Numbered from the stretch's first letter, positions 24,364 through 26,928 are shown. The stretch: DNA of 32,000 nucleotides from an uncultured bacterium (GCA_964565945.1 CAZMGY010000003.1:43680-75679), one strand, 5' to 3'. Made by a program: numbers and translations. Notes: generated by a model from the letters alone, not told the origin.

Positions 24364-24993
24364 GTGGGATTGATTTGTATTCAAGCGATTCAAAACTGTT
24401 ATGAGTCACCTTGGCGGCGCTTGTTTGATGGATTTTTGGCCTTCTGTGGTTTGGTTGTGCTCAGTCCGTTGGCGTTGGCCATTGCTCTTGCAATCAAGCT
24501 AGAAGATCGTGGGCCTATATTTTACGCCCAAGAAAGAGTTGGGCGAGGAGGGCGTGTGTTTAAATTGTTCAAGTTTCGTTCGATGGTGACCGATGCGGAA
24601 TCCCAAACAGGTCCTGTTTTGTCCTCAACGCGAGACAATAGGATAACTCGGGTGGGGGCTTTTTTGCGTGCGACAGCTTTGGATGAGTTGTCGCAGTTAT
24701 GGAATATTTTCAAAGGTGATATGAGTTTTGTGGGGCCCCGATCTGAACGACCGTTTTTTGTTGAGAAGTTCAGCAAAGATATACCAGGCTATTGTTTGCG
24801 TCATCAAGTTCGCCCAGGCTTAACGGGTATTGCACAAATTTTTGGTCGTTACAACACGACAGCCAGGGATAAGTTGCGTTACGACATGATCACAGTAAGT
24901 CATCCTAAAATATTGTTTGAACTTTATTTAATCGCGGTTTCTTTTAAAATTACCTTTACAGGTAAATGGACAAGTATGGAAAAGGATCGGTAG
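24364..24993 (+). CDS. Small monotopic polyprenyl-phosphate phosphoglycosyl transferase (bacterial sugar transferase family, PglC/WbaP C-terminal type)
   Basis: One N-terminal reentrant helix, then FKFRSM, ALDELSQLWN, GDMSFVGPR and PGLTG motifs. GTG start with a good SD. Confidence 0.88.
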   Translation: MGLICIQAIQNCYESPWRRLFDGFLAFCGLVVLSPLALAIALAIKLEDRGPIFYAQERVGRGGRVFKLFKFRSMVTDAESQTGPVLSSTRDNRITRVGAFLRATALDELSQLWNIFKGDMSFVGPRSERPFFVEKFSKDIPGYCLRHQVRPGLTGIAQIFGRYNTTARDKLRYDMITVSHPKILFELYLIAVSFKITFTGKWTSMEKDR

Positions 24994-24997
24994 GACG

Positions 24998-26200
24998 ATG
25001 GTTTATGACGTTATTATAGTTGGGGCAGGTCCTGTTGGTAGTTTTTTAGCGCGTCAGCTGACGCGCTCAGGATATTCGGTGTTAATGCTAGAAGAGCATG
25101 ATATTATTGGTCAGCCAGTTCATTGCACGGGTGTGATTGGTGCTAGCTCGTACCGTTTTTTGGATTTACCCATGGATGGCTTGCAAAACAAAATTCCTGA
25201 TATTAGTTTTATTTCGCCACAAGGCCACGAAGTAACGCTTAACAACCCCAAGCACTGGGCGTATATTGTGTGTCGCCATAGCTTTGACAGTTCCATTGCT
25301 AAGCAGGCAATGGAGAGTGGTGCTGAGTTGCGCTTGTCGTCTAAGGTCGAAGATGTGGTCGAAGATGATAAAGGTGTAACGGTGACTCTTGAAGGGGGCG
25401 AATCCATCAAAGCACGGTTTTCTGTTCTGGCCACTGGCTCGACATCCAAGTTGCCTTATAAGTTAGGTTTTTATCGTCCTTGGTATTTTTTGAAATCGGC
25501 TCAGGTTGAAACCGAAGTGCAATTTGACAATCCCAAAAAAGTTGATGTGTTTTTGGGAAGCAAGGTGAGTGGGGGAGAATTTATTTGGATTGTGCCTGTG
25601 AATGAAACGGTGGCACGTATCGGTGTTTTTTCACGTTATAATGCTAATCAGTATTTAAAATCCTTTCTGGAAAGAGAGGATATTCAAGCTCGTATTCCTA
25701 ATCCTTATAAACTTTCTTGTAGCGTGATTCCGATTGGAGGTTTGGATAAAAAGGACGTGCAGTGGTCGCGCATACTGACAGTTGGCGATGCCGCTGGTCA
25801 TGTGAAACCAACCAGTGCTGGAGGGATTGTTTTTGGAATGACCTGTGCCAGCATCTTAAAAAAAACCTTGGACGAATATAACGATAAAGTACATTTGGAC
25901 GATCAGATGGCAAAGGCTTATTACCAGCGTGTGCGGCGTCGCTTGGGCTTAGAGATTCTTGTGGGCAGTTTTTTTCGCAGTTTGTTTTCTAAACTCGAAG
26001 ATGACGATTGGAATCGGATCGTGTCCTTGGCAAATGACCCAGAGTTGCTTGATATGATTCATAAAAAATCTGAGTTTGACAAGCACAGTAAAATTATCAA
26101 GTGGGCCTTAACCAATAAAGAATACCGACGCATCTTTTTTCAGAAATCTTCAAAGAGTCTGTGGCCTGTTGTGAAAAAAGGGATGACCATATGGATTTAG
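24998..26200 (+). CDS. FAD-dependent oxidoreductase of the geranylgeranyl reductase family
   Basis: YDVIIVGAGPVGS dinucleotide fold, LEEH, a conserved Cys in HCTGVIG (the GGR PCGG position) and VGDAAGHVKPTSAGGIVFGM. About 400 aa. Confidence 0.75.
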   Translation: MVYDVIIVGAGPVGSFLARQLTRSGYSVLMLEEHDIIGQPVHCTGVIGASSYRFLDLPMDGLQNKIPDISFISPQGHEVTLNNPKHWAYIVCRHSFDSSIAKQAMESGAELRLSSKVEDVVEDDKGVTVTLEGGESIKARFSVLATGSTSKLPYKLGFYRPWYFLKSAQVETEVQFDNPKKVDVFLGSKVSGGEFIWIVPVNETVARIGVFSRYNANQYLKSFLEREDIQARIPNPYKLSCSVIPIGGLDKKDVQWSRILTVGDAAGHVKPTSAGGIVFGMTCASILKKTLDEYNDKVHLDDQMAKAYYQRVRRRLGLEILVGSFFRSLFSKLEDDDWNRIVSLANDPELLDMIHKKSEFDKHSKIIKWALTNKEYRRIFFQKSSKSLWPVVKKGMTIWI

Positions 26201-26928
26201 TCCAGGATCAGGATATTTTTACCAAATATCAGATTAAGCCTAATAAATTGCCTCGTCATGTGGCTATCATTATGGATGGGAATGGTCGCTGGGCTCAAGA
26301 AAAAGGCCTTCCTCGTGCCAAAGGTCATCGGGAGGGCATTGAAGCGATTCATCGAGCCGTTCAGGCCGCCATTGACCTTAAAGGTATTGAGATTGTGTCT
26401 TTGTATGCTTTTTCGACCGAAAACTGGAAACGTCCCAAAACAGAGATTGCGAGTATTATGGACTTGGTCAAGTATTTGCCAGGAAAAATCAGTTTGCTCA
26501 ATCAGAACGATGTGCGTGTTCGATCGATGGGACGGATGAAAGATATGTCTTTTTTTGTCCGAAAAATGATTTCTTTAACTCAAGAAGCGACCAAAAATAA
26601 CAAAGGAATGGTTTTGAACTTTGCGATTAATTACGGAGGACGCGAAGAAATCATTGATGGACTTAAAAATGTTGTGAGTCAAAAAAGTTTGCCCGATTAT
26701 GATTTGACCGTAAAAGATTTTAAGCGTTATCTGTATTGGGATTTGCCTGATGTGGATTTATTGATCCGTACATCGGGGGATCGGCGCATTAGCAACTTTA
26801 TGTTGTGGCATATTCCCTATGCGGAGATGGTCTTTTTTGATACACTATGGCCAGACTTTCAGGGAGAGGATTTTTTTCATGCGGTTCACGAGTATCAACA
26901 ACGTTCGCGGCGTTTTGGCAACCTTTAG
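26191..26928 (+). CDS. uppS: Di-trans,poly-cis-undecaprenyl-diphosphate synthase
   Basis: Motifs HVAIIMDGNGRWA, AFSTENWKRP and IRTSGDRRISNFMLW. ATG 26191 overlaps the reductase 3' end by 10 nt. Confidence 0.95.
   Translation: MDLVQDQDIFTKYQIKPNKLPRHVAIIMDGNGRWAQEKGLPRAKGHREGIEAIHRAVQAAIDLKGIEIVSLYAFSTENWKRPKTEIASIMDLVKYLPGKISLLNQNDVRVRSMGRMKDMSFFVRKMISLTQEATKNNKGMVLNFAINYGGREEIIDGLKNVVSQKSLPDYDLTVKDFKRYLYWDLPDVDLLIRTSGDRRISNFMLWHIPYAEMVFFDTLWPDFQGEDFFHAVHEYQQRSRRFGNL

Follow-up and report, generated by a model that had tools for sequence, protein, structure and literature searches.

In the general account, the carrier lipids of bacteria are fully unsaturated (PMC5088576), with the mycobacteria as the known exception. 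Saturated carriers made by members of the geranylgeranyl reductase (GGR) family are already known from both archaea and mycobacteria (PMC10821996; PMC3035642). Among the archaea, the GGR of Haloferax volcanii acts on dolichyl phosphate (Naparstek 2012, as reported in PMC10821996), and that of Methanosarcina acetivorans is described as omega-specific (Ogawa 2014, as reported in the same source). In mycobacteria, a partly saturated sugar carrier arises when the GGR paralogue HepR reduces a prenyl diphosphate of mixed Z,E configuration at its omega and E units (PMC10821996; PMC3035642). Here we describe a block of four genes in a 32,000-nucleotide stretch of DNA, the window, from an uncultured bacterium (GCA_964565945.1, CAZMGY010000003.1:43680-75679). 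The block encodes, in order, a monotopic phosphoglycosyl transferase (PGT), a GGR-family flavoprotein, a second cis-prenyltransferase (UppS2) and a Wzi-family protein, and on the evidence of the genomes compared below it probably serves a dedicated polyprenyl-phosphate carrier, saturated in its omega or E units, for a capsule-type glycan.

The window enzyme resembles the archaeal GGRs that act on dolichyl phosphate, as summarised in that source, in its family and in the omega-reduction of a glycan carrier that is proposed for it. It differs from them in being bacterial, in scoring 50 bits against the cut-off of 700 for the haloarchaeal equivalog, in having no adjoining ferredoxin gene, and in sharing its gene block with a monotopic PGT, a second UppS and Wzi. 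HepR, a bacterial GGR-family enzyme behind a partly saturated sugar carrier, may be analogous to the window enzyme in its proposed role, but the C35 carrier of HepR holds monosaccharide donors in Actinomycetota, whereas the window implies a capsule-type pathway, initiated by a monotopic PGT, in unrelated uncultured phyla. To our knowledge, Group 1-type capsule systems draw on a common pool of unsaturated undecaprenyl phosphate (Und-P), and have neither a reductase nor a private UppS. They share with the host genome a monotopic PGT, Wzi and Wzy_C-, Wza- and Wzz-like genes (here encoded away from the block, on contig C21); the block adds a reductase and a second UppS, and no full Wzc kinase was identified in the genome. 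We found no description of a GGR-PGT pairing in the open-access literature, and the string "geranyl" is absent from the full text of a paper on the annotation of monotopic PGTs at large. What the locus brings that is new is the presence of all three enzymes together, the second uppS, a co-occurring clade of PGTs and a case of loss.

The flavoprotein is the sole member of TIGR02032 over the cut-off in a genome-wide profile search of the host (G000; 1.6 Mb, 99% complete), with a score of 211.5 bits against a curated threshold of 158.8. With motif definitions taken from PMC10821996, it displays G9-x-G11-x-x-G14, H42-C43-T44-G45, R93-x-x-F96-D97, F195-x-W197-x-x-P200 and G263-D-A-A-G, together with an LxGD motif in the form LTVGD (residues 260-264). 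The catalytic Cys motif is kept in 124 of 125 close homologues and F/Y-x-W-x-x-P in all 125, and the halogenase motif WxWxIP occurs in 0/125. The best sequence match in the PDB is the GGR of Thermoplasma acidophilum (3oz2, E 1e-20). For the predicted model (pLDDT 87), the top seven Foldseek matches are all GGRs, with 3oz2 the best at a TM score of 0.79. This enzyme (Ta0516) and the GGR of Sulfolobus acidocaldarius (3atq, TM 0.78) share GxGxxG, the Cys, RxxFD and LxGD with the flavoprotein, which is only about 22% identical to them and scores far under the cut-offs for digeranylgeranylglycerophospholipid (DGGGPL) reductases. The placement in the GGR family that an earlier note had made from this DNA is thus borne out by profile, sequence and fold. 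The flavoprotein is neither a halogenase nor a monooxygenase, the families against which the note had asked for its placement to be checked, as judged by profiles, fold matches and the missing WxWxIP.

The flavoprotein shares a superfamily with MenJ and ChlP/BchP, but stays well below the cut-offs for MenJ (NF045655, 52.4 bits against 700) and for ChlP/BchP (TIGR02023/02028, 109.6/343 and 43.2/505 bits), and its locus lies outside the men cluster. It also fails the three models for archaeal DGGGPL reductases (NF041080/041160/041385; 88/580, 76/780 and 50/700 bits). The only UbiA-family gene over the cut-off in G000 is MenA, and neither a digeranylgeranylglyceryl phosphate (DGGGP) synthase nor a chlorophyll synthase was found there, so archaeal-type ether lipids and chlorophyll are unlikely targets of the enzyme. 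In a phylogenetic tree, it falls within a bacterial clade (support 99/98) with members from Acidobacteriota, Methylomirabilota, Binatota, Nitrospirota, Chloroflexota, Melainabacteria and Vulcanimicrobiota. This clade is separate from the DGGGPL-like, archaeal lipid-reductase-like copies of Methanosarcinales, and uncharacterised archaeal paralogues lie just outside it. An Atlas search returned uncharacterised FAD clusters only.

The block is a real and conserved module. The order GGR-uppS-wzi is kept in four of four orthologous loci, at 48-80% identity of the GGR, and the 10-nt overlap of GGR and uppS in three of the four. The upstream PGT is seen in two; at L113 lpxK lies directly 5' of the GGR, without a PGT, and at L112 the contig ends before the possible position of a PGT. 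Further afield, targeted searches found a PGT within 1.5 kb of the GGR for 52/125 close homologues as against 1/55 distant ones, a uppS for 12/125 as against 0/55, and either gene for 61/125 as against 1/55, although the distant GGR-like controls (n=55) come from other taxa, which biases the comparison. A metagenome scan with P0004 returned distant flavoproteins only, and these were used as out-of-clade controls. Adjacency of PGT and GGR spans five lineages, namely the host lineage, Acidobacteriota, Methylomirabilota, the phylum of G250 and Nitrospirota. That of uppS and GGR is also found in Dehalococcoidia, in both gene orders and once in a run of phosphohexomutase-like, nucleotidyltransferase, uppS and GGR genes. 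The earlier note had asked whether the adjacency is restricted to one genome; it is kept both in orthologous loci and across phyla. Other neighbours of the GGR include NDP-sugar epimerases, Wzy_C, NusG-type regulators and DUF1616. Separately, a PF14907 nucleotidyltransferase gene often lies 3' of the GGR in acidobacterial polysaccharide loci (L033, L034, L247, L248 and others).

The PGT is the only PF02397 gene found in G000 (197 bits). It consists of a single short domain with an N-terminal hydrophobic segment and KFRSM and PGxTG motifs, and its Asp-Glu dyad is intact, with DELPQL changed to DELSQL in the window copy. The GGR-adjacent type falls into one clade of 58 sequences (support 97/98), which is marked by a RATA-x-DEL signature and by conservation of a C-terminal motif. 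The GGR-adjacent PGTs are not a random draw but a dedicated clade, even if some, such as that of G388, are of other types. At L046:2532-3635 (Methylomirabilota), a second and very divergent GGR-like gene lies directly behind another PGT type, which suggests a separate GGR-PGT pairing.

The link between the two enzymes extends to whole genomes. Both profiles were searched against 344 genomes of four groups (Acidobacteriota 121, Methylomirabilota 61, the phylum of G250 81, Dehalococcoidia 81), and a clade PGT was counted as high-scoring at 280 bits or more. Such PGTs occur in 9/121, 7/61, 4/81 and 1/81 of these genomes, respectively, and the GGR type in 16, 20, 8 and 33. All 21 genomes with a high-scoring clade PGT carry the GGR type, and none of the 266 GGR-negative genomes has such a PGT, the latter count being 266 because G166 carries a split GGR, 10 kb from its clade PGT. 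The pattern is thus nested, with the clade PGT nearly always accompanied by the GGR and the GGR often found without the clade PGT. At least six pairs (G082, G143, G173, G357, G448 and G483) consist of genes that lie apart, and synteny alone therefore does not account for the link. A further six PGTs of lower score were assigned to the clade by tree: three come from genomes with the GGR, one is that of G166, one is that of G442, which is interrupted by a stop codon in a genome with no clade GGR, and the last is the long-branch PGT of G358. In the Nitrospirota sample, the GGR was found in the seed genome only (1/101). The GGR of G166 (G166:C2:1556821-1557545, L348) is matched in two pieces beside a transposase-like open reading frame (ORF), and may belong to a decaying module.

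The genome carries two cis-prenyltransferases, as found by a genome-wide profile search. UppS2 of the window scores 247 bits against TIGR00055 (cut-off 110), with its catalytic motifs intact in the alignment, and does not stand in the housekeeping uppS-cdsA context. The other uppS, at C30:23067, lies directly 5' of cdsA and groups with the copy in the uppS-cdsA-dxr context of a relative, G001, whereas UppS2 and its GGR-adjacent orthologues form a branch of their own. Helix 3 of UppS2 is one residue short, and because this feature is not common to the orthologues at L112 and L113 we make no claim as to chain length. The earlier note had taken the window uppS for the maker of Und-P; it is not the general one but a second copy, with the housekeeping gene beside cdsA, which strengthens the carrier-lipid idea but changes it to one of a dedicated carrier.

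G001, which is of the same family and 97% complete, provides a natural case of loss. Searches of it yielded no gene for a PGT, a GGR, Wzi or Wzy_C, and it retains menA and a gene of the squalene/phytoene synthase family. One gene downstream of lpxK it has an orthologue of uppS2 (G001:C84:4715-5470, L357), which scores 163 bits to the window copy and 87 to the housekeeping copy. The gene is intact (252 aa), but the catalytic DGNGR motif has been lost and the C-terminal RRFG tail kept, a combination reminiscent of non-catalytic subunits of the NgBR/Nus1 type. The joint absence with menA kept, although a single case, connects uppS2 and the GGR with the glycan module and not with quinones. A 1245-aa ORF with no Pfam match precedes this orthologue.

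Elsewhere in G000, a cluster at C21:112.6-117.8 kb comprises Wzy_C, a gene for a Wza-like export protein and a weak Wzz-like candidate; GT4 and GT2 glycosyltransferase genes occur within about 20 kb of it. A Wzc query gave no match in the genome; no Wzx flippase was identified, although no search for Wzx was made. A capsule-like polymer held by Wzi would be the simplest fit for the product of the PGT. Within the window, an operon at 15419-21338 encodes a Gfo/Idh/MocA dehydrogenase, a hexapeptide acetyltransferase, a DegT aminotransferase, a non-hydrolysing 2-epimerase, an NDP-sugar epimerase and a GT9 glycosyltransferase. Its gene order resembles that of WlbABCD/WbpBDEI for 2,3-diacetamido-uronic acid, and its product could supply either the PGT or lipopolysaccharide.

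Because a second uppS, a GGR and the sole monotopic PGT stand in one block, and because the pairing recurs in several uncultured phyla, a partly saturated carrier of the pathway's own is probable. We infer the substrate, the position of reduction, the sequence of the steps and the connection with the C21 genes as follows. The block would provide the opening steps of a surface glycan pathway of the capsule type, which would have a carrier lipid to itself. UppS2 would make a Z,E-mixed polyprenyl diphosphate, and the FAD-dependent GGR would hydrogenate omega and/or E-isoprene units, on either the farnesyl or geranylgeranyl diphosphate (GGPP) primer or the finished chain; these two timings have likewise both been left open for archaea (PMC5088576). 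The clade PGT would then load the first sugar-1-phosphate onto the partly saturated polyprenyl phosphate, the C21 Wzy_C-, Wza- and Wzz-like proteins would polymerise or ligate the glycan and export it, and Wzi would hold it at the surface, while the housekeeping UppS would continue the ordinary supply of Und-P. Of the carrier-lipid tailoring module put forward in the earlier note, the GGR family and the link to a carrier lipid thus stand. Apart from the role of uppS, two of its points need correction: the description of the carrier as dolichol-like, which is taken up below, and the view that such saturation is not established for bacterial Und-P pathways, to which HepR and the octahydroheptaprenyl-phosphate sugars of mycobacteria are precedents (PMC10821996; PMC3035642).

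A number of observations weigh against the proposed dedicated carrier. The flavoprotein has altered forms of two usual motifs, with ADG changed to ATG and the PxxYxWxFP strand reading SGGEFIWIVP, in which the hydrophobic F/W/P are retained and the first Pro and the FP are altered (clade consensus PGGFAWxVP). We know of no characterised GGR inside its clade. About one third of the close homologues (40/125) have none of the tested glycan neighbours, and a clade PGT is present in only 21 of 77 strongly GGR-positive genomes. G358 has a long-branch clade PGT, defined by tree, without a clade GGR, and the GGR of G357 falls just outside the core clade in the tree. The eight PGTs outside the profile-building set all co-occur with the GGR (8/8, nominal P 2e-8), but such P-values overstate the association since the profile was built from GGR-adjacent genes and related genomes are not independent. 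A second uppS was found beside the GGR only in the host lineage; two Dehalococcoidia that were checked have no uppS other than the one next to the GGR. Finally, G000 has genes for other isoprenoids, namely menF, D, B, A and C, a long-chain trans-prenyltransferase and a stand-alone gene of the squalene/phytoene synthase family (G000:C16:13722-14603, L379; also in G001), so other substrates exist and menaquinone and squalene are possible ones.

The enzyme could accordingly be one that reduces menaquinone, in the manner of MenJ or AF0648, or squalene, and that has settled in an envelope operon, the more so as GGRs are promiscuous (PMC10821996). We regard this as distinctly unlikely, given the low MenJ score, a men cluster on another contig, and the retention of menA and the synthase in G001, where no GGR, PGT or Wzi was found; nor would it explain the nesting of the PGT clade within GGR-positive genomes. 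A UbiA-family gene is present in 78/81 Dehalococcoidia genomes, which allows a quinone role there, and was not found in three GGR-bearing metagenome-assembled genomes of that class (G062, G067 and G080), which argues weakly against such a role across the clade. The flavoenzyme might instead have a different task in the glycan pathway, reducing the prenyl chain of a permanent lipid anchor, or oxidising or otherwise tailoring a lipid-linked intermediate. Its gene neighbours (PGT, epimerases, Wzy_C, NusG-type regulators, DUF1616) associate it with glycan loci without naming a substrate, its fold is common to oxygenases and halogenases, and the members of its clade share specific changes at the DG motif and a Lys that is conserved behind GDAAG. 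This alternative appears unlikely, as the catalytic Cys and the F-x-W-x-x-P strand are nearly invariant, the halogenase motif is missing throughout, and the recurrent linkage with uppS speaks for the polyprenyl chain itself as the target.

Less likely again is a dolichyl phosphate with true alpha-saturation, which the term dolichol-like implies. It would come as a surprise, because in GGPP the archaeal GGRs reduce distal C=C bonds alone and spare the diphosphate-proximal one, with characterised enzymes acting on omega or distal units, and because alpha-saturation persisted when the GGR of Haloferax was deleted (PMC10821996). On the other side, the archaeal alpha-reductase is unidentified (PMC5088576), the closest outside relatives of the clade are uncharacterised archaeal GGR paralogues, and the need for a specialised PGT would presumably be greatest with a change in the phosphate-proximal unit. 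That the genes are neighbours by mere chance, through compaction of the genome and without any link in function, has been largely refuted by the neighbourhood counts and is hardly credible: the window is indeed a mixed envelope and housekeeping region (lptF, lpxK, dnaQ-like, ROK kinase) of a 1.6-Mb genome, but order and overlap are kept in orthologues, the PGT pairing crosses phyla, and the genes are jointly absent from G001.

The layout of the block is given in Table 1, with family assignments from Pfam and NCBIfam. On re-reading of the sequence, the coordinates, the 4-nt gap and the overlaps of 10 and 50 nt given in the earlier note all hold, and identical starts have been called independently for the block genes in public assemblies. 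A promoter and terminator scan gave hits at chance level only (14 against 11.6, and 5 against 5.9).

Table 1. Features of the block, in window coordinates
Feature	Position	Strand	Remarks
Candidate extended -10 promoter element, TG-n-TATACT	24325..24333	+	In the 93-nt gap after lpxK; seen by eye, weak, missed by a two-hexamer scan
Shine-Dalgarno sequence AAGGAG	24352..24357	+	6 nt 5' of the PGT GTG; from sequence
Small monotopic PGT, 209 aa	24364..24993	+	PF02397; GTG start, TAG stop at 24993; GGR-linked PGT clade; RATA-x-DEL, C-terminal SFxITFxGxW; followed by the 4-nt spacer (24994-97)
Predicted GGR-family FAD prenyl reductase, 400 aa	24998..26200	+	TIGR02032; ATG start, TAG stop at 26200; uncharacterised bacterial clade
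Accessory cis-prenyltransferase UppS2, 245 aa	26191..26928	+	TIGR00055/PF01255; ATG 26191, overlapping the GGR by 10 nt; MDGNGRW, FSTENW, RTSG and C-terminal RRFG motifs intact
Wzi-family capsule-assembly outer-membrane protein, 538 aa	26879..28495	+	PF14052; ATG 26879, overlapping uppS by 50 nt; sole copy found in G000

Two further features of the window lie away from the block. At 4885-8712 there is an unusually long P1B-type ATPase-like ORF (1275 aa), with profile matches in its central part only, and at 14082-14932, on the minus strand, one or more short aldehyde-dehydrogenase-like fragments, possibly a pseudogene.

Why carriers of the dolichol type are saturated, and how different pathways share a scarce pool of carrier, are open questions. 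With synthase, reductase and transferase encoded in 2.6 kb, both can be tested in E. coli, and the PGT subfamily that the locus defines can be assayed for the acceptor it prefers. It is possible, and we put this forward tentatively, that several uncultured phyla maintain two carrier pools, Und-P for peptidoglycan and a GGR-saturated polyprenyl phosphate that is selectively recognised by this PGT subfamily. If that were the case, saturation would label the carrier and thereby direct it to a single pathway, for which the host lineage would have a private synthase.

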